Shown in pieces: positions 4,141 to 49,950 of a stretch of 64,000 nt of DNA. Made by a program: the position numbers and the translations under genes. The notes beneath the pieces were generated by a model. The model was not told where the DNA came from, did not search any database, and worked only from the letters and a program-made list of their open reading frames with translations. The stretch's first letter is position 1. Each line of letters starts with the position of its first letter. Source of the stretch: Kondoa subrosea (taxonomy: Eukaryota); assembly GCA_039545335.1 (NCBI GenBank), contig BCIN01000010.1, positions 391,804 to 455,803 of the forward strand, in the 5' to 3' direction.

Positions 4141-5138
4141 TTACACTCTTATCTTTTGATTTTTGACCCAATATGCAGGCAAACCCCATTCTTCAGGCTT
4201 AAATTTTTCCAGGGACACGAGCTCTTGCGACGGAACAATATGCGTTCCACCTTTGTTCAGCATGTGTTGCTTCAGACCGCTATCAGGAACCCAAACCACA
4301 CTCATTGAAGCTGCCAAAGCGGCTTGTACACCACTGAACCCAGAGTGATGTCAATACTGATCGATAATATAGTGTATCACGTACGGAATTCCATCTTCAA
4401 ATACAAGACACTGTTTCCACCCTTCTTCGTCCTTGATACCTAAGGTATCAGCGGCAAGATGAAAGATATCCTGTGGGGGCTAGTTCAGCAGATATCTCTG
4501 GGCACTTGAGGGCAAGAACTGACGGGATACGGCTTCCCTCTTCCTGGTTTCAGTAATGGAGAATCGCCTGTGACTATCCGATCCGACGGGAAGCAGCTTA
4601 TCAGCTCTGGCAAATGGGTAGTCTTCAGAATTAGATTCCGGTGTTTTGATCCCGTTGCAATCTATTGCAGACTTGTCAGCTGTACCAGCATAGGTTACGC
4701 ACAACTTACTGCTATCGGTATCTTATGTTTATGTAGATGCTGCACCAATTTCAGGGCTCCGGGAAGAATTGCAACCTGTGTGAGTGGTCAATTACAAGAA
4801 GTGTATTCAGCATCCATTGCACAACCTTGCGAAACATATCATCTTGTATAGAAGCCATCTGCTCAATGACTTGCCCAGCTGTGAGAGGAATCTTTGTCTC
4901 GTCTAGAAGCAATTTAACAGCAGCGTCCTGCGATGTGTGGCCTATATCAACACTAGCCCTTATGTAAAAGCCTGAAAGCCACCTGCGGCTGGCCCATTAC
5001 GCGCGACTTGAGATCCCAAGTCAAAGTCTGTCCATAGGGAGCCAGTATAGCGTTGGTAGCGTCCGTATAGACTCGTTCACTGTCGATTAGCAATCCGTCC
5101 ATATCGAAGATTACTGCTTTGATCTGCGGTCTGGCCAT
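4141..5138 (-). CDS. HAD-superfamily phosphatase (HDHD1/pseudouridine-5'-phosphatase-like)
   Basis: HAD motif I AVIFDMDGLLIDSE, CLVFEDG motif, and C-terminus FKPEEWGLPAY. Confidence 0.85.
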
Positions 5139-5249
5139 AAGTAGTATCTTGTAATGTAATGTAATGGTGCAGGAGATGACTAATACAAGTTTTGAGCAGA
5201 GATTCGACGCGGGCAAAGAAAAGGTTTGTTGTTTTTCACGAACGGTGAC

Positions 5250-6756
5250 ATGGATCGCTTATTGGTTGAAGCAGCAGCTCAAGGTCACCTCAAGGGCCCA
5301 TTGGATCTTTCCAGACTGCCCAAGGAGAGCTCTTTACAGCTTGAACACTGTTTGCGATCATTGTTATCGCGGAACCGAGACGAAGGACTACAGCGGGAAG
5401 CATTGGACAGCAGAGCTCGTGCGCTGGGTTCGGAAGTAGAGCGACTGGCGGGAAAGCTCGAGCGAGCAGAGGAAAAAGCCAAATCTCAGAGGGTAGAAAA
5501 GGGCTTGTTGGAAGCAAGGTTACAGCAAGCTACAAGAGCACTGTCTACTGAAGAAAGCAAACACACGTTGTGCAGAGAGGATCTACAAAAGGCACGCAAT
5601 TCTTTGGCTACTGTGAAGGCTGTCTCGAATACAGACGCGAAAAGAAGGGAAAGAGAAACGCAAGCTTGTCTACAGAAATGGCAGAAACTTGCAAGTCTGC
5701 CGCAACATCATTCGCTCGATTCAGCCTATTACAGCACTTTGCGATTATCTTCCGCTCCTTTTGCATCTACATCATATATCGACCCAAAGGTGGACCTTTT
5801 GACCACCTGCCTGAACGATTCCGAGATAACACGGCAAGCGCTTTTGGCGGACAACTTAAGCTGGAGAGATGCATTCCTTCAGGCTATGTCTCGCCTTGCA
5901 TCAACATTGCACGAGCATGGCGTGCAAACAACTGCAGTACATATCATCTTCTGTTCCGAGATTACTCGCCGATTGAATGCTTTGATGCCAGATTCTGCCG
6001 AACGACTTGTCAAATCTTGCGCCAGCATCGGTCGCTTGCCATCTTCTACCGCTACTCGACCTGGTACACGAGTCACTTGGCACCTTTGCAACGAATTTTG
6101 AAGACCAGAGGAATGATTTGCAGGAGAAGATCCAGCGCGTTCAGAATATGGCCAAAGAAGAAGCTCTGACTTGGGAACAGACGAAAACGCATCATATAGC
6201 CCAAATTACCGAGCTGACTGCTCAGCTGAGTGAGCATTGACCTGCTAGCCTTGTGAGACAAACTAAGTATTTTCATTCAGAGGCCGGCATTGACCACATT
6301 CAAACACTGGAAGCTCAGATCAAAGCGCACGTCTGTAAAGCTGCCAAGCCTGTTAAGCCATCCAAGTGCGCTCAGCCAAAGTACTCTTGAGTATTCGCTG
6401 ATATCTGTACCACTGCAGACCTGACGTTTCAGTCCCTTCATCAATTGCGCTTGTAGAAACAGTACCTGAGAAAGTAAAGGTATGTCGCTCTCTTCTCACT
6501 TGAGACTCTCAATAGTAACTAAGCTCAGACTAAGCAGCAACGGGATCCTTCTCAGCGAGCGCCATCACTCAGAGCGGAAAACAAGAAATCCTCGCAAGCG
6601 AAGCGCTCAGAGTCTGTTAAATCTCGCCAAGCGGAACCGTTGCAAGAGAAGCCTGCATCTGCCTTATCGAAAAGTTTGGCTGCCGCTGTATATGACTCAC
6701 CTGCTGTACCGCTTGAGAAGGAGAGCAAGCGCAAAGTGCGAGTAGTCACGACTTAG
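5250..6756 (+). CDS. Coiled-coil protein, ADIP (afadin/alpha-actinin-binding; Msd1-like) family probable
   Basis: A long heptad-rich ORF (5250-6101) plus spliced 3' exons. The N-terminal GHLKGPLDL...CLRSLL...REAL pattern resembles fungal ADIP-domain proteins. Confidence 0.55.
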
Positions 6757-43438: not shown

Positions 43439-44366
43439 GGTAAATCCAAGGTAGATCGCCTAGAGTTGCTGAATTGACAGAGGATGAGATTCGGCCCCAG
43501 TGCAAACGCCAGCAATAGTCACTACGAGTCCTTTAGCCGGCCCCTTCTTATCCTCAATTCCAGGCAACTGCTGACTTGCAAAGTCTGAACTATTCTCTTC
43601 CGCCTCTGCTTTGTCAACAACGATCTTGCATGCGCAACTCTTTTGCTTCGAAGACCTGCACTCCGTGGTAGACTTGATCCTTTGCTGAAAGAAGAGATAC
43701 TTGATGGCGGTTTGGATGAAGATCTCGATGATTCTGAGGAGGAAATTGTCAAATTACTAAACGTTTGGCTGCGTCTCGCTGCTTCGCATTTCTGCGTGCA
43801 GCCTGCCTGTCTGTGCTATCATTCCTCTTTTACGAGTTTGCGTTTGCTTCTGTGCAGCTCTTTTGGCCAATCAGGAAAATCAGCTTTTCGCTAAATTCCG
43901 GGCTTTCTTCTCTCTCTCTAAGTCTCTGGCGCTCTCTGTGTGGACGACGGATTGATGCGAACTCGTTGATTGCCGTTTGCGAAGCTGTCAGTCACTGCAG
44001 TAATGCACATGAAGATCCCTTACGATCTGCGCAATGCAATCTGTCAATCTCGTCTACTAGCTTGTTTCATGGGACTGCAGTGTTCATATAGGGTTGTTGA
44101 CTGCTTCCTCTACGAACGATAGATAATTGGCGCGATTATCTTCGTCAGGGTCCACGGGACGAGCCATCCAACACTGTCTATGCGATGAATGGGAGCCATG
44201 GACCGGTATCACCATTTCCTTATTGGCTCTTGAGTCGTTCAGTGACCTTTTCGATTGTTTGATGGACGATGAATGAGATGGTATGAGGAAACGATGATGC
44301 GAGATTTTTGATTGGCTTCGCAGTCAACTTCAGCCGGCAGCTACGAGATGAAGCGGTATTCGAGTC

Positions 44367-44975
44367 AAGATAGCCAGAAGTGGAGAAGGGCAAACATTGC
44401 CCAAGTATAGAGCAACCGGGGCAGAGACATGCGCGTAATCTACCGAAGCGATTTACAGAAGGGAATTGATGAGTTCTTCACTGCTCGACATACACCAGAA
44501 TGCCCGCGAAAGCTATAGGCAAAGGTACAATCACGACCTGGAGTTCTTCTGTGAATACTGGATGTGTATAAAACTTCGATTCTCGATTCTTCCGCGAACC
44601 ATCTCTGCTTTCGATCTCATTGTTCCGTTCTCTGAGAAGTATAAGGAGGATATGAAATATATAATACGCTTCTATCTAGCGAAAAATTTGTGTCAGATGG
44701 TGCTAGACTTTCGTGTATCATCACTTGCAACGCAACACGCATCGTCATCCGTGCTTTGAGAGTACTTGCAAAGTTGTCTGCGATTGAGAGACGGCAGATC
44801 ATGGCAAAGTCGAAACGATGAAACGACGAAACGATGTGACTTCATCTCCAAGAAAACTTACAAACAGCGGGCTATTAGATTGTGTTGTACGCAAAGACTG
44901 CCACACCACATCGAGGTCTGGGGTTGTGGCGCAGTGGTAGCGCGTATCATTTGCATTCCGCTTGCCTTGATAAGG
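44367..44975 (+). repeat. Left arm of a ~0.6-kb inverted repeat (partner 48582-49205)
   Basis: The ORF track gives near-identical translations at 44466-44759(+)/48803-49192(-), 44766(+)/48796(-) and 44802(-)/48760(+). Direct reading shows matching sequence through the tRNA 5' half. Confidence 0.95.
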
Positions 44976-45002
44976 CCTTGAGTTCGATCCTCAACTGCTC
45001 CA
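44920..45002 (+). tRNA. tRNA-Ala(UGC) with 11-nt intron (44956-44966)
   Basis: Cloverleaf: acceptor GGGGTTG/CTGCTCC-A with the Ala identity pair G3:U70, D arm GCGC/GCGC, anticodon stem TATCA/TGATA with TGC at 44952-44954, T arm TTGAG-TTCGATC-CTCAA. A T5 run follows downstream. Confidence 0.88.
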
Positions 45003-45382
45003 AGTTCATTCTTTTTGCATCTTGTCTTGACTTTTTTTTGGCATCTGCACCTTGACTTCAAGCATTTTCGACTTATTCCTTCTCCTCATTCTTTGCTAGG
45101 CCTTGAGTTCCAAGATCCTCAACTGCTCCACTTAGTTCATTCTTTTTGCATCTGCATCTTGTCTTGACTTTTTTTTGGCATCTGCACCTTGACTTCAAGC
45201 ATTTTCGACTTATTCCTTCTCCTCATTCTTTGCTAGGCCTTGAGTTCCAAGATCCTCAACTGCTCCACTTAGTTCATTCTTTTTGCATCTGCATCTTGTC
45301 TTGACTTTTTTTTGGCATCTGCATCTTCACTTCAAGCATTTTCGACTTATTCCTTCTCCTCATTCTTTGCTCGGCCTTGAGT
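44973..45382 (+). repeat. Tandem repeat of tRNA 3' end plus trailer: 3 units (125, 137, 137 bp) plus an 11-bp stub
   Basis: Units begin AGGCCTTGAGTTC at 44973, 45098 and 45235, with a stub CGGCCTTGAGT at 45372. Confidence 0.95.
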
Positions 45383-45805
45383 ATCACAGCTCGCCAGGTG
45401 CTTCAACCTGTTGCTGATTTCTTGCCCCTTTTCGCCCTTCTTTTCTGCAGCTTGCAAGCGCGGTTTATACTCGTCTATTGAAAGCTTGTTCCCATGTGCT
45501 AAAGTAGTAGACATCAACGACGACGAGTATGAAGAATGTCACAGCCTCAAGTTGCACTTCAGTTTCATGGATATTGCCCAGTCACATTGTACCAAAAAAG
45601 TTAGTCGTTATCGCTCACTGTGCAACCAAAGGCTAACTTCACTCGAATAATATTTGGATCTCGGTCCAATGACGTTCGCAAACAAAGCGGGAAAAGCGAA
45701 AATGAAATTCAGCCAAAGCTACCCGTTCTCGAACTTACAGATGATCAACGCGACTACTTTCGACCTTCGACATATTCCCTGACCTGAAAGTGGGGTACAA
45801 CCAAA

Positions 45806-48550
45806 GTGGATCTATCAGATGAAGTGAATGAGGAAGCTTATGCTAGCATTGTCAAGGGACGATTGCTCGAAAACGACTTCATAGAGGATGACAATGGGTC
45901 AGGTTATGTTGACAATGGCATGGAAGAAAAATGGGCAGAAGAATGGGCAAAGATGATGGTGGATCTAGTCAGGAAGAGGGAGATCGTATGCTCCTACACT
46001 TTTCTATTGTTTATACTTAAATGTATTCATTCAGGCAAAGGCAAGAGGCGGAATCGCAAGAAAGACGCGAAAGGCAAACCTGAACCCAAGAAAAGGGTCA
46101 CTGCGACAGTCTTCTCAAAATCGAATGGTAAAGCTGCTGCTGCTGCTGCATCTCGACCGGCTGCAACAGACATCAATCTTACAAAAAACAAGTCGAGGTA
46201 GCCCAGGGAGCAGACATCATGTCTTCCTTGCTAGGCCTCCTAGACGATGCGACTGCTACTTCCTTCCTCTCTTTTTCGACAAGTCGTAAACGTAAAACTT
46301 CACCAGAACTTCAATCAGCTACCTCTAATCCGTTACGCACTTCTACCTCTTCTTTCCGCAGACCACGCTGCTTGAATACGCTCACACCTAGCGGAACTTC
46401 TTCATCTGGTCCTTATGTTGATTTGCTTTCGACTGCAAATGGTGCTTCGTCCGTTGGCGATCTACCTTCTTCAGCAAAGAAAGCTCGTCCTAGTCCTTCT
46501 CACAACATGGACAACTTCACTGACCTGTCTTTCGGAAATGTGTTCTTCGATCGAAGGAGATCTAGATATGGTCAAAGAAGAAGTGGACGACGATATGTTC
46601 GTCAAGCCAAATCAAGTCAATGCTCGACTAGCTGCCGCACCTCCTAGGAAGCTAGTCAACACCTCTTCTATCAAACCCGCTCGTCCATTATCATTATCGC
46701 CTACTCCTGCTGCGGATAAAGCGGACGTTTCCAAAGACAACAAGAAACCGAAAGGTTTGGTATTGCGATTAGCTGCTCAAGGTGTTACCGCTTCTGAGTC
46801 TGCCGATCTACCTGTTTTGGAGGATTTGACTGCTGCTGTTAACGGAAAGAAAGGCAAAGCCAAACAATATGATGCACCTTTGACGAGCAAGATCAAAGCT
46901 TGTGAATTGGATGGCGAAACTTTGAGGTTCTATTGGTTGGATCACATGGAAGTCAATGGTGTTGTTCATCTTTTTGTCTCTGGCAAAGTCCTTGATCACG
47001 AAACTGGCAAACATGTTTCTTGCTGTGCGAGCGTAGAAGGGATTGAGAGGAATCTATTGGTTTAACATCGAGGCAAGAAGTCAGAAGAAGAGAAGCTAGC
47101 TGTGAAAACCAATGGAAAACCTGAAATTAAGAATAAGAAGAAAGTAAAGAAACAGATGGCTGCTGATGAAGAGGAAGATGAAGCTACTGGTTTCGAAGAG
47201 TCAGACGAAGAAGAGTCCAAAGAAGAATCAGAAGACGATAAATCTGATTATGGACCTCCTTTAGATGAGGTCTATGACGATTGCGACGAAGTCAGGCAAG
47301 AAGCTGGAATTGTATCTTGTGCTTCTAAAGAAGTTAAGCGCAAGTATGCCTTTGAGCTTCCTGGAGTGCCTGCAGGAACCAAGTACCTCAAAGCGGTTTA
47401 TGGCTTTGATCGTGAGTCAAATTTCTCATTGGTTGGCTGGGTGAGCTGACAGGGTGAGTTGACAAATATTGATAGAACCTCAACTATATATGGATATGAC
47501 AAGAAGAACCTTCAAACGAGTCTTTGGAACAAATACCTCTGCCTTCGGACTCTTTGTCATCAAGCGAAGGATGATGGGTCCTCGTTGATTGAAAGTGAAA
47601 AATGCCGAGCTGAGCGGCAAAGATGTAAGTCCTTCGATCTCCATCTTATTGCCTATTTTCATGTCCATCGCATTAGGTCTCCTGGTGCACATTGAAAGTG
47701 AAAGTCAGATCACCAAAACATATCAACCCTTCCAAAGACAGCGACCCAAATGCGCCTAAAGATGTGCCACCCTTGACGATGATGAGTCTGAGTTTACGAA
47801 CCATAGTCAATCACAACGAAAACAAGCGCGAAATCGTCTGCGCTACCGCTCGAGTTCGGGAAGATTGTACGTCTTTCATTATCGCCCAAGCTGCTTCATC
47901 GTAGTATTGAGTCCTCTGTTCAGCGACTTGGAAGATACAACTCCGATCCAGAAACAAGTATGCTCTGTGCATACTGTTGTTCGACCTTTGGCAGCTTTTC
48001 CCGCTGAAGTTGTTCGTTTGGCTAAAACGAAAACACCTAAAATCAGGCCTGTCAGGACTGAGAGAGTGGTCATTATTCAGGCTCTAGGTAAGCCAATAAA
48101 TCAACAATACTCGGATGAAATATCTTATTGGATCTACAGCATTAATACAACGCTTCGATCCTGAAGTGACCGTCGGTCGCAAGTTCAGTGGAGTGCTTCG
48201 TGACGTCCTCTTAAATCGTATGAGGGAACTCAAGGCCGATCATTGGTCAAGATTGGGTCGGTTTAGACGAGATCAAATGGCCAAGGCTCGAGAATAGTCT
48301 GGGTTCGCATCTGCTTATTCTAAATTGTCCTCGATCTCGCTTCTGAAGGTCTAAAGGCGAGCCTTTACAAGCACCGTCAGCCTGATTGCTGATGACAGAT
48401 AATGTCAAAGCATAGTTGGCTCTGCAACCTGGTCTTCGACCCAAATGTGCTCATGTCAACTTAGAATCGAAAGGCAAGGTATGCCAGGAAGATACAGCTG
48501 AGCCAGCTGGGCACCCCTCCTTCCTGCTCGCCAGTATTGCGAGATAAGAT
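45806..48550 (+). pseudogene. POL1: Truncated, disrupted copy of DNA polymerase alpha catalytic subunit (5' half)
   Basis: Pol-alpha motifs appear in order: [33 protein letters not shown]...EGIERNL, RKYAFEL, FGTNTS, PPLTMMSLSLRT, WSRLGRFRR, DLASEG and TWSST.MC. In-frame stops and frameshifts are present, introns are retained, and no polymerase domain follows. Confidence 0.9.
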
Positions 48551-48581
48551 TGGCCTGCTGATAGTCTTTGCGAATACTCGC

Positions 48582-48643
48582 CCTTATCAAAACATGCAAG
48601 AGCGGGCAGAACGCACTGATACGCGCTCCTGCGCCACAACCCC
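48582..48643 (-). pseudogene. Degenerate tRNA-Ala 5' fragment
   Basis: GGGGTTGTGGCGCAGGAGCGCGTATCA...TTGATAAGG has a shortened D-loop, a scrambled anticodon loop/intron, and no T arm or 3' acceptor strand. Confidence 0.8.
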
Positions 48644-49205
48644 AGACTCGATGTGGTGTGGCAGTCTTTGCGTACAACACAATCTAGTAACCCGCTGTTT
48701 GTAAGTTTTCTTGGAGATGAAGTCACATCGTTTCGTCGTTTCATCGTTTCGACTTTGCCATGATCTGCCGTCTCTCAATCGCAGACAACTTTGCAAGTAC
48801 TCTCAAAGCACGGATGACGATGCGTGTTGCGTTGCAAGTGATGATACACGAAAATCTAGCACCATCTGACACAAATTTTTCGCTAGATAGAAGCGTATTA
48901 TATATTTCATATCCTCCTTATACTTCTCAGAGAACGGAACAATGAGATCGAAAGCAGAGATGGTTCGCGGAAGAATCGAGAATCGAAGTTTTATACACAT
49001 CCAGTATTCACAGAAGAACTCGAGGTCTTGATTGTACCTTTGCCTATAGCTTCCCGGGGCATTCTGGTGTATGTCGAGCAGTGAAAACTCATCGATTTTA
49101 TATAAGTCTTCTTCTGTAAAATCGCTTCGGTAGATTACGCGCATGTCTCTGCCCCGGTCGCTCTGTTCCCGGAAAAGGCGTCTCCTTTTCACTTCTGGCT
49201 ACCTT
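48582..49205 (-). repeat. Right arm of the inverted repeat (partner 44367-44975)
   Basis: The reverse complement matches the left arm, including the orphan ORF and the tRNA 5' half. Confidence 0.95.
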
Positions 49206-49382
49206 CCACACGACCACTCTGTAGCATGCAAAGGCATGCTGATGACAGCTTTGAGTTGTACGGAGTAAATGGACAAGGTCAGTGACAGTCAAAATGATTC
49301 GCGACATGACATTGAAGGCTAAGTGCGCAGGCAATTGCTGGATAAGTATTACGATGCTAGTGGACAGCAGACGTGAGTGCAT
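48803..49382 (-). other. Orphan coding-like sequence (possible F-box-like N-terminus), duplicated in the left arm; gene or pseudogene unresolved
   Basis: Two overlapping ORFs in different frames (LIQQLPAHLAFNVMSRIILTVTDLVHLLRTT; RGRDMRVIYRSDF...SSVL). The left copy carries a stop and an indel. Confidence 0.35.
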
Positions 49383-49950
49383 GCTCTTATGCGTCCAAGT
49401 ATGTGCTGATCTCAGTCATTAGAGCATACACCTACCGTAAGCAATCTTTCGCTCGCATATCAACCAGATAACAAAAGACAATGAACAGATAACGCAAATG
49501 GATCTGTATACCACAAAGTCCTTAGATTGAAGTCAATGTACCGAGCAGCACCAGGGTCGCATCTGCATAGTGTGAGATTCGTTGTAAACAGGCGAAAAGC
49601 AGCTGACGAGATCGCAGTGGGAGCAAGTAGATGGGAAAGATAGAATCAGAGAAGCGACACTGGATTGTGAATGTGTAGACTGTCAGCCAAATGATACGGA
49701 AACAGAAGATTCGCTCTATGTCAAGAAGGAAGAGGATTCGGATTGAGGAATATGTGAATGGTGTATGTATAAATGGCATGGTATACCAAGAAGATTGTAT
49801 AATACAGTAAGTTTATAACACGACAACCCAAACATAAGTATCGTATAACTGAGCACCGAGCAACAAGCCTTGCTGTTGCGCTGGTCAATGCATGCAGGGT
49901 CGCAATAGCACTCCATGCTCGCTTAAGAGCAGCAGGAGTATGGTAACGAG

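Follow-up and report, generated by a model that had tools for sequence, protein, structure and literature searches.

An inverted-repeat island around a POL1 pseudogene in Kondoa subrosea, a probable rearrangement scar at a tRNA-Ala gene

An island in the genome of the yeast-like basidiomycete Kondoa subrosea, made of two inverted arms around a tandem array and a decayed POL1 copy, is probably a scar left by chromosomal rearrangement at a Pol III gene, with arms that have since evolved in concert; we give this reading a probability of about 0.68. The island lies in a stretch of 64,000 nt that was analysed as a whole (the window; contig BCIN01000010.1, positions 391,804 to 455,803). As originally described, it interrupts gene-dense housekeeping sequence: its neighbours are a G-patch gene, a DUF3336 patatin-type gene, PGM, G6PD, and GET4. 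No mating-type gene was found among the 53 ORFs scanned from 30 to 64 kb of the window.

Organization of the island

The features, in window coordinates, are as follows.

44285..44345, + strand: diverged copy of a dispersed short element, directly outside the left arm
44367..44975, + strand: left arm, about 550 nt of DNA from upstream of tRNA-Ala plus the 5' part of the tRNA; two copies genome-wide
44367-44540 and 44541-44870, + strand: eroded outer edge and homogenised core of the left arm, from the comparison of the arms
44469..44759, + strand: 96-codon ORF of the left arm, its 5' end frameshifted relative to the right-arm ORF
44812..44862, + strand: truncated tRNA-upstream element in the left arm, stopping 57 nt before the tRNA
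44920..45002, + strand: complete tRNA-Ala(UGC) gene, with an 11-nt intron (44956-44966), a G3:U70 pair, and T-runs after it
44973..45382, + strand: tandem array of the tRNA 3' end and downstream flank, with units of 125, 137, and 137 nt and a remnant
45383..45716, no strand: spacer of 334 nt, without identified source
45717..48501, + strand: pseudogenised genomic POL1 copy, codons 21-816, with a PF12254 match
48502..48581, no strand: spacer of 80 nt, without identified source
48582..49205, - strand: right arm, the inverted copy, with its core at 48692-49021
48582..48643, - strand: decayed tRNA-Ala copy, its first 14 nt exact, D-loop deleted, and anticodon lost
48803..49144, - strand: 113-codon ORF of the right arm, without detected homologue

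The arms are inverted relative to each other, as predicted, and are 92.6% identical over 595 alignment columns (44367-44949 versus 48617-49205); weak similarity in the tRNA part carries the alignment on to about 44975 and 48582, with a score matched by 0 of 300 shuffles. The near-identity first ascribed to them holds for the core, which has 1 difference in 330 nt, but not for the edges, where we counted 22 differences in 172 nt plus 4 gaps on the outer side and 7 in 100 nt plus 5 gaps on the inner side. The core and outer edge differ significantly in rate (Fisher P=4e-10). In two sequencing runs the core assembled as a single 375-nt contig at 1.65x and 2.0x the flank depth, and because of this depth we take the core identity to be present in the reads. 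By the Fisher test and by the double depth of the core, the arms are more alike than their age predicts. This two-age profile suggests that an inverted duplication arose long ago and that gene conversion has since homogenised its core.

The tRNA-Ala(UGC) gene is the genome's only match to this tRNA; it scores 52 bits with Rfam and is also called by ARAGORN, which overlooked it at default settings because of the intron. In an alignment of four rows (this tRNA, the decayed remnant, and two almost identical sequences of a single other fungus), 6 of 21 stem pairs are altered on both sides, compensatory changes relative to the other fungus's tRNA. Template-free folding of the region was uninformative (z = -0.2), and a search for A-box/B-box patterns was useless as a tRNA lister, with 9 matches compared to 16 in the control. 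The right-arm copy lacks the 3' acceptor strand and has no Rfam match. The original prediction that the arms end inward in the 5' part of tRNA-Ala is thus correct for the right arm only, since the left arm runs into the complete gene. This left gene is the sole working part of the island, which has no evident function apart from it.

Downstream of the gene, a tandem array of tRNA 3' ends was found as predicted: every unit (44973-45097, 125 nt; 45098-45234 and 45235-45371, 137 nt each; then an 11-nt remnant) begins within the tRNA 3' end, and in the later units 3 nt are inserted into the T-loop (B box). Upstream, the element outside the left arm is 80% identical over 61 nt to a copy upstream of tRNA-Leu(CAG) on contig C3, and such short dispersed elements sit upstream of several tRNA genes in the genome. 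The truncated element inside the left arm has a mirror copy in the right arm near 48741. Copia relics are also borne by tRNA loci in this genome.

Save for 334 and 80 nt of spacer, the interior is POL1-derived, which bears out the decayed POL1 5' half reported earlier. The copy is 85% identical to C8:26265-29014, part of the intact POL1 gene on contig C8, from which it differs at 363 of 2,733 sites, and it is damaged by 3 stops and several frameshifts. All 7 introns of codons 21-816 are retained, with splice sites changed in 2 of them, and the copying was therefore DNA-mediated; a processed pseudogene (retrocopy) is ruled out. RIP-like decay is likewise unsupported, with C>T rates of 0.07-0.12 in all four dinucleotide contexts. 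The dN/dS ratio is 0.34 (bootstrap 0.26-0.44), compared to 0.38-0.45 for a simulated copy dead from birth, and neutral-from-birth simulations gave 6.5-8.8 stops; having fewer stops than simulated, the copy may have been under constraint during part of its existence. The dS of the copy, 0.25, is above the 13% divergence of the outer arms, so POL1 capture and arm duplication may have been separate events. Significant homology to POL1 ends 80 bp short of the right arm instead of about 30 bp as first proposed, and the 80-nt spacer significantly matches neither the POL1 continuation (P=0.17) nor the tRNA 3' flank. The 334-nt spacer has no match in the genome itself or in Pfam and is not POL1 upstream DNA (P=0.25).

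Proposed origin and a second tRNA locus

The rearrangement would have begun at the tRNA-Ala(UGC) gene, where a break or a stalled fork was repaired; this is the putative mechanism behind the observed products, an inverted tRNA with about 550 nt of its upstream DNA, placed 3.7 kb downstream. In the same or a separate event, a 2.8-kb unspliced genomic piece of POL1 from contig C8 would have been copied between the arms. The inverted tRNA copy and the POL1 fragment have decayed, and the tRNA 3' flank has been amplified in tandem, presumably by slippage. Non-allelic gene conversion between the close arms is then the likely process that reset a core of 330-375 nt to near identity while the edges eroded, as their profile records. 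An occasional crossover in the core is predicted to invert the interior and to leave the tRNA unbroken, because both arms supply the same upstream sequence. The original prediction offered a template-switch rearrangement seeded at a Pol III gene as one of two possibilities; the rearrangement fits, and the template switching is a step that we infer.

The same design is seen at a tRNA-Thr(UGU) locus on contig C1, 1 of 11 other tRNA loci examined. Its arms, unrelated in sequence to the tRNA-Ala arms, show 4 differences in 407 nt of core compared to 25 in 107 nt of edge, and here too identity climbs stepwise from edge to core, as it does at the tRNA-Ala locus. These arm sequences come from the assembly alone and have an N at the matching site in both arms. 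The tRNA tips point outward at this locus and inward at the tRNA-Ala locus, and the gene-like DNA inside it has no paralogue and no homologue. In 267 kb that were self-compared, a sample enriched for tRNA loci, these were the only two inverted repeats within a locus to reach both 300 nt and 85% identity, and both contain a tRNA 5' end. The intact tRNA, the two-age arms that indicate later homogenisation, and the second tRNA locus of like design all go beyond the original prediction.

A broader proposal, tentative and on balance doubtful, is that the two loci represent a class of miniature flip cassettes, anchored on tRNA genes, that recurs in this fungus. Each would have gained, at a distance of 3-4 kb, an inverted tRNA 5' end with about 0.5 kb of upstream DNA, would collect gene fragments, and would have arms held identical by Pol III-linked breaks and an interior that inverts within the population. 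The island would carry greater weight if inversion of the interior were demonstrated.

Competing explanations

The first alternative, and an improbable one, is a one-off history, in which an old inverted duplication was followed by one recent second copying that overwrote the core, with no continuing exchange. One recent overwrite would yield a two-age profile identical to that of repeated conversion, and for a single genome it accounts for the profile equally well. However, the second locus with the same profile would require two coincidences, and the stepwise rise in identity within each arm pair also speaks against a single event.

Somewhat less probable again is a selected, tRNA-anchored invertible cassette, with arm identity maintained for the sake of the orphan ORF or of the DNA upstream of the tRNA; selection of this kind has been proposed for Saccharomyces repeat genes (PMC9731477). 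Each arm does contain an orphan ORF, as predicted, although its status as a gene is doubtful. In dinucleotide-matched random sequence (2000 trials), ORFs of at least 113 aa arose in 1.5% and of at least 96 aa in 5%, the former low enough to lend the cassette some support. The lone core difference is synonymous in the frame of the 113-codon ORF, two outer-edge indels (-1 and -11) compensate each other, and the tRNAs of both loci have U at the wobble position. Nevertheless, the ORF carries a frameshift in the left arm, and edge substitutions are mostly non-synonymous. No homologue of the arm ORFs was found in the genome beyond the two arms, in Pfam, or among 1.84 billion protein representatives, and no Atlas match rose above lead level. 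The left-arm ORF is probably not a gene, and both ORFs may be chance products. Three metagenome contigs, 97-99% alike and apparently of one species, share the first 25 nt of tRNA-Ala; in the available sequence this relative shows no shared genes, no synteny, and no inverted tRNA copy, so that its tRNA-Ala is without such a repeat.

A small regional centromere, with inverted arms around a 3.6-kb gene-free core and the tRNA as boundary, is very unlikely. Its size and layout resemble those of Candida tropicalis centromeres (2-5 kb core, homogenised repeats; PMC4741521), the two loci lie on different contigs, and the interior is slightly AT-rich (44.7% GC compared to 46.2%). The arms are only 0.6 kb, however, and share no sequence with other contigs, unlike the C. 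tropicalis repeats. Furthermore, AT content is higher in one coding region of the window, the interior of the second locus has 48.2% GC, and a copia nest elsewhere on C10, the contig of the island, is an alternative candidate.

The other possibility originally put forward, a non-autonomous, gene-capturing Pack-type transposon with long terminal inverted repeats (TIRs), has a slimmer chance still. Pack-MULE and Pack-TYPE elements carry an intron-bearing gene fragment between long inverted sequences, and the arms around POL1 codons 21-816 with 7 introns share that architecture. The proposed search of the whole assembly for paired arms with different cargo nevertheless gave two matches in 18.9 Mb, both in this island, a count that may be too low since the search passes over very common words. 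The absence of a clear target-site duplication (TSD) was confirmed: no candidate at the outer ends exceeds 4 nt, and neither of the only two 4-mers lies flush with both ends. Decay within the arms is greatest at their outer termini, a profile search of the genome found no PF10551 match for a MULE transposase, the arms of the second locus are unrelated, and one arm runs into the only matching tRNA-Ala(UGC) gene. The Pack-type reading fails the check first proposed for it and is largely refuted. The island departs from these elements in lacking a TIR family, a TSD, intact termini, and a detected MULE transposase, and annotators may note that Pack-like architecture is possible without a transposon.

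Misassembly, the least likely explanation, draws on the inability of short reads to span the arms or to fix the array copy number, but four junctions (left flank/arm, array/POL1, POL1/right arm, and right arm/flank) are bridged by independently assembled contigs from two runs, both of one sample that is possibly the source of the assembly, the core is covered at double depth, and the POL1 copy is set apart from its source by the many differences given above. The read-derived contig pieces examined were 16 of 62, none over the tRNA and array and none spanning an arm; interior orientation and array copy number are given as assembled.

Comparison with known systems

The design was not found in a basidiomycete among titles and abstract openings of largely non-subscription literature. 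Dada DNA transposons (PMC3706591) are tied to tRNA genes, including tRNA-Ala, as the island is, and the exact match of the right copy stops in the A-box region, a further likeness. Dada elements split a multicopy gene in two, leaving the halves in direct orientation and a 6-7 bp TSD; they have no TIRs and encode a DDE transposase. Here the tRNA is intact, its copy and the arms are inverted, and there is no 6-7 bp TSD. The centromeres of C. tropicalis, like the island, have a few-kb core between homogenised inverted arms. Their arms are 2-5 kb, alike across chromosomes, and proven by CENP-A binding (PMC4741521), whereas the arms here are short; similarity across contigs is absent, with the tRNA-Ala arms unique and those of the second locus unrelated to them.

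tRNA genes mark yeast breakpoints (PMC2817429), and in tRNA-flanked yeast inversions and breakpoints (PMC2817429, PMC5911963) the rearrangement is bounded by a tRNA gene, as here. In the cases described there, pre-existing tRNA genes or Ty elements are joined, whereas here the partner is a nearby copy, decayed and carrying 550 nt of unique flank, and a fragment from another contig lies between the arms. On the rearrangement reading, the island is a clean case of tRNA genes as fragile sites, marked by a dead fragment of POL1.

The closest known system is the flip/flop (FF) region of Saccharomyces chromosome XIV, whose repeats begin at tRNA-Ile genes and are homogenised by gene conversion (PMC9731477). 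Both have tRNA-anchored inverted repeats (one tRNA copy being decayed here), orphan ORFs, remains of mobile elements upstream of the tRNA, and arms that short-read assembly merges at double depth; in both, non-allelic gene conversion, putative here, keeps the arms alike. The FF arms are 4.2 kb with both tRNA-Ile genes complete, compared to 0.6 kb and one dead tRNA here; the FF arm genes are expressed in sporulation, whereas the island is known from its sequence; and the FF interior has 24 kb, 15 genes, and demonstrated inversion, compared to a POL1 pseudogene and predicted inversion. In PMC9731477 the reason why tRNA-tipped repeats remain homogeneous is left open. Arms without a working protein gene that arose twice in one genome would show that proximity to a Pol III gene suffices, with no need of selection on arm genes. 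If the cassette proposal is true, the cassettes would be a basidiomycete counterpart and an earliest-stage picture of the FF region.

Arms, tRNA gene and POL1 copy

The island (window 44367-49205; the window is C10:391804-455803) is a real feature, set in an assembly of 18.9 Mb in 27 contigs and bordered by two genes.

One side of the island, minus strand: G-patch gene
Other side of the island, plus strand: DUF3336 patatin-type gene

Introns are short in the window genes, and the best named match of the intact DNA polymerase alpha, among 3 matches, is that of Mixia osmundae (55%), which suggests a Pucciniomycotina-like basidiomycete. Two good intron signals lie just beyond the right arm, at 49226-49500 (+), where the spliced ORF has only 51 codons; this is possibly a gene remnant at the island junction.

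Over 595 alignment columns, the arms are 92.6% identical. The core has 1 substitution in 330 nt, the outer edge 22 in 172 nt with 4 gaps (Fisher P=4e-10, outer edge versus core) and the inner edge 7 in 100 nt with 5 gaps, so that the near-identity described in the original prediction holds for the core and not for the edges. The left arm continues into a complete tRNA-Ala(UGC) gene (44920-45002, 11-nt intron), and the right arm carries 14 exact bases of it followed by a decayed trace reaching about the T arm; the idea that both arms end in the 5' part of tRNA-Ala is thus wrong for the left, and only the right copy is decayed. The gene matches only itself genome-wide; three metagenome contigs, apparently from one other fungus, have a tRNA-Ala(UGC) of their own. 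The acceptor stem is identical in the two, U:U mismatch included, and the anticodon and T stems show compensatory changes, with both-side changes in 6 of 21 pairs in a four-row alignment that has the remnant as one row; on this stem conservation and compensation, the gene looks functional. In the acceptor stem, the mismatch (U6:U67) is conserved together with a U5:G68 pair (window 44920-45002; 6001-6081 of sub-region L039). Downstream of the intact tRNA, the expected tandem array is present. It consists of one 125-nt unit, two 137-nt units and a remnant, all derived from the tRNA 3' end with its flank, and the B box of the later units contains an insertion.

The interior also contains, as predicted, a decayed fragment of POL1, the DNA polymerase alpha gene: 45717-48501 matches the intact gene (C8:26265-29014) at 85% and spans codons 21-816, beyond which the source gene continues through its polymerase and zinc-finger domains. 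All seven introns of the span are retained (7/7), which means that the template was DNA. Across 2733 sites the copy carries 363 substitutions, along with 3 stops and several frameshifts; its dS is 0.25 and its dN/dS 0.34 (0.26-0.44). Simulated copies dead from birth gave mean dN/dS values of 0.38-0.45 and 6.5-8.8 stops, and those that evolved neutrally for only the last or any three quarters of their history had 0.29-0.37 and 4.8-6.2 stops. Set against these simulations, the decay is mostly neutral; with so few stops, the copy may have spent an early spell under constraint. The spacers beside the copy (334 and 80 nt) had no detectable source.

A second locus and other tRNA neighborhoods

The survey took in 12 tRNA loci, out of at least that many in the genome: the Rfam search that listed them scored 63 of 689 candidates. 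All 12 were read with their flanks, which extended 4.2 kb or more in each direction at 10 of them; the other two each had one shorter flank, of 0.6 and 2.2 kb, so more distant inverted partners could be missed. One of the 11 other loci, tRNA-Thr(UGU), has the same design as the island (C1:327567-332003; L024:1567-6003 in sub-region numbering).

C1:327567-327683: intact tRNA-Thr(UGU)
C1:331490-332003: inverted copy of the first 40 nt of tRNA-Thr(UGU) plus ~480 nt of upstream DNA

The two copies differ at 4 of 407 sites in their homogenized core and at 25 of 107 in the edge. The tRNA tips face outward, whereas those of the island face inward, and they enclose single-copy, gene-like DNA for which no homologues were found. 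This locus is known from the assembly only, with an N at the same site in both arms. A U5 snRNA gene (L024:6357-6464, minus strand) lies ~350 nt past the partial tRNA copy and faces it.

A short dispersed element (about 50-130 nt, 18 genomic matches) recurs upstream of tRNAs at the sites read, always in one orientation.

Window 44285-44345: tRNA-upstream element
Window 44812-44862: tRNA-upstream element
L012:1655-1775: tRNA-upstream element
L019:4105-4236: tRNA-upstream element
L013:5013-5240: tRNA-upstream element

Its exact 14-mers number 17, compared to 0 in the control, and at 7 of 12 loci its end motif precedes the tRNA by 51-73 nt, an interval picked after viewing the data. It has no Rfam match. 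The spacing resembles that of Dictyostelium TRE5 and NLTR-B as tabulated in PMC5911963 (Table 1), and the sequence may be either a non-autonomous mobile element that targets tRNAs or part of an upstream promoter.

Other tRNA loci have copia relics. Relic nests with 130-147-nt repeats in both orientations lie beside tRNA-Gln(CUG) (C10:344500-353500; L030, L031), which is another centromere candidate for C10, and by tRNA-Ser(AGA) (C3:2282800-2290900; L034). Adjoining tRNA-Val(CAC) is an inverted paralogous pair of 3.1 kb at 69% (C6:1162994-1166004 and 1168078-1171111; L027, L028); one member has a pectate-lyase-like domain (PF12708), and an 83-nt inverted repeat flanks the first copy on both sides. 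Two contigs share about 0.9 kb (72-96%), one upstream of tRNA-Arg(UCU) at L017:3394-4377 and the other upstream of tRNA-Leu(AAG) at L021:1667-2503; the latter gene (L021:2571-2722) is 152 nt, its intron unusually long or double. A 380-nt direct repeat (89%; L012:2035-2410 and 4273-4648) sits between convergent tRNA-Leu(CAG) and tRNA-Ser(AGA) genes 6 kb apart, and a 44-nt match (95%) joins the unrelated loci window 5150-5192 and C1:342764-342807.

Origin of the island and known counterparts

The island was misread as a possible transposon; it is best explained as a pair of tRNA-anchored, homogenized inverted repeats. We infer the processes from their products. A repair event at tRNA-Ala would have made the inverted copy, and the POL1 fragment would have been inserted at roughly the same period; because the outer arm divergence (13%) is lower than that of POL1 synonymous sites, duplication and capture may have been two separate events. 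Later gene conversion from one nearby arm to the other would have reset the core. A single late overwrite of the core is an unlikely substitute for this last step. Selection on the arm ORF is somewhat less probable again: the hints are weak, and no homologue of the arm ORFs was found. Such ORFs arise by chance in 1.5-5% of simulation trials. The layout does resemble the inverted-repeat centromeres of C. tropicalis (PMC4741521), but with short, unique arms here, and an interior at the C1 locus that lacks AT-richness, a centromere is very improbable.

The Pack-type element capturing POL1, one of the two readings first proposed, is more improbable still: there is no TIR family (the arm's genome-wide matches are the two island copies), the island termini are the most decayed portion of the arms, a search covering MULE transposase found no MULE domain, and a TSD is absent, as had been noted from the start. 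Dada elements, which according to PMC3706591 have direct TSDs, no TIRs and multicopy gene targets, were likewise rejected. Misassembly is the least credible explanation, since raised depth of the core (one 375-nt read contig; 89.9 versus 54.5 and 286 versus 144.8 in two runs) indicates two near-identical copies in the reads; four island junctions are bridged by contigs built separately from these runs (16 of 62 pieces displayed), which come from one sample and may be the assembly's own source data. No piece spans an arm, and the interior orientation and array copy number are taken from the assembly alone.

For homogenized arms anchored at a tRNA, a crossover in the core would flip the interior while the tRNA stayed intact; that both loci do invert is rather unlikely. 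Yeast breakpoints are marked by tRNA genes (PMC2817429, PMC5911963). Such conversion and crossing over between arms has been proposed, in PMC9731477, for the flip/flop region of Saccharomyces chromosome XIV, whose 4.2-kb repeats start at tRNA-Ile, contain orphan genes and grew out of a 74-bp tRNA-tRNA repeat. The island, known from one genome's sequence, looks like a miniature flip/flop region and is a candidate member of that class.
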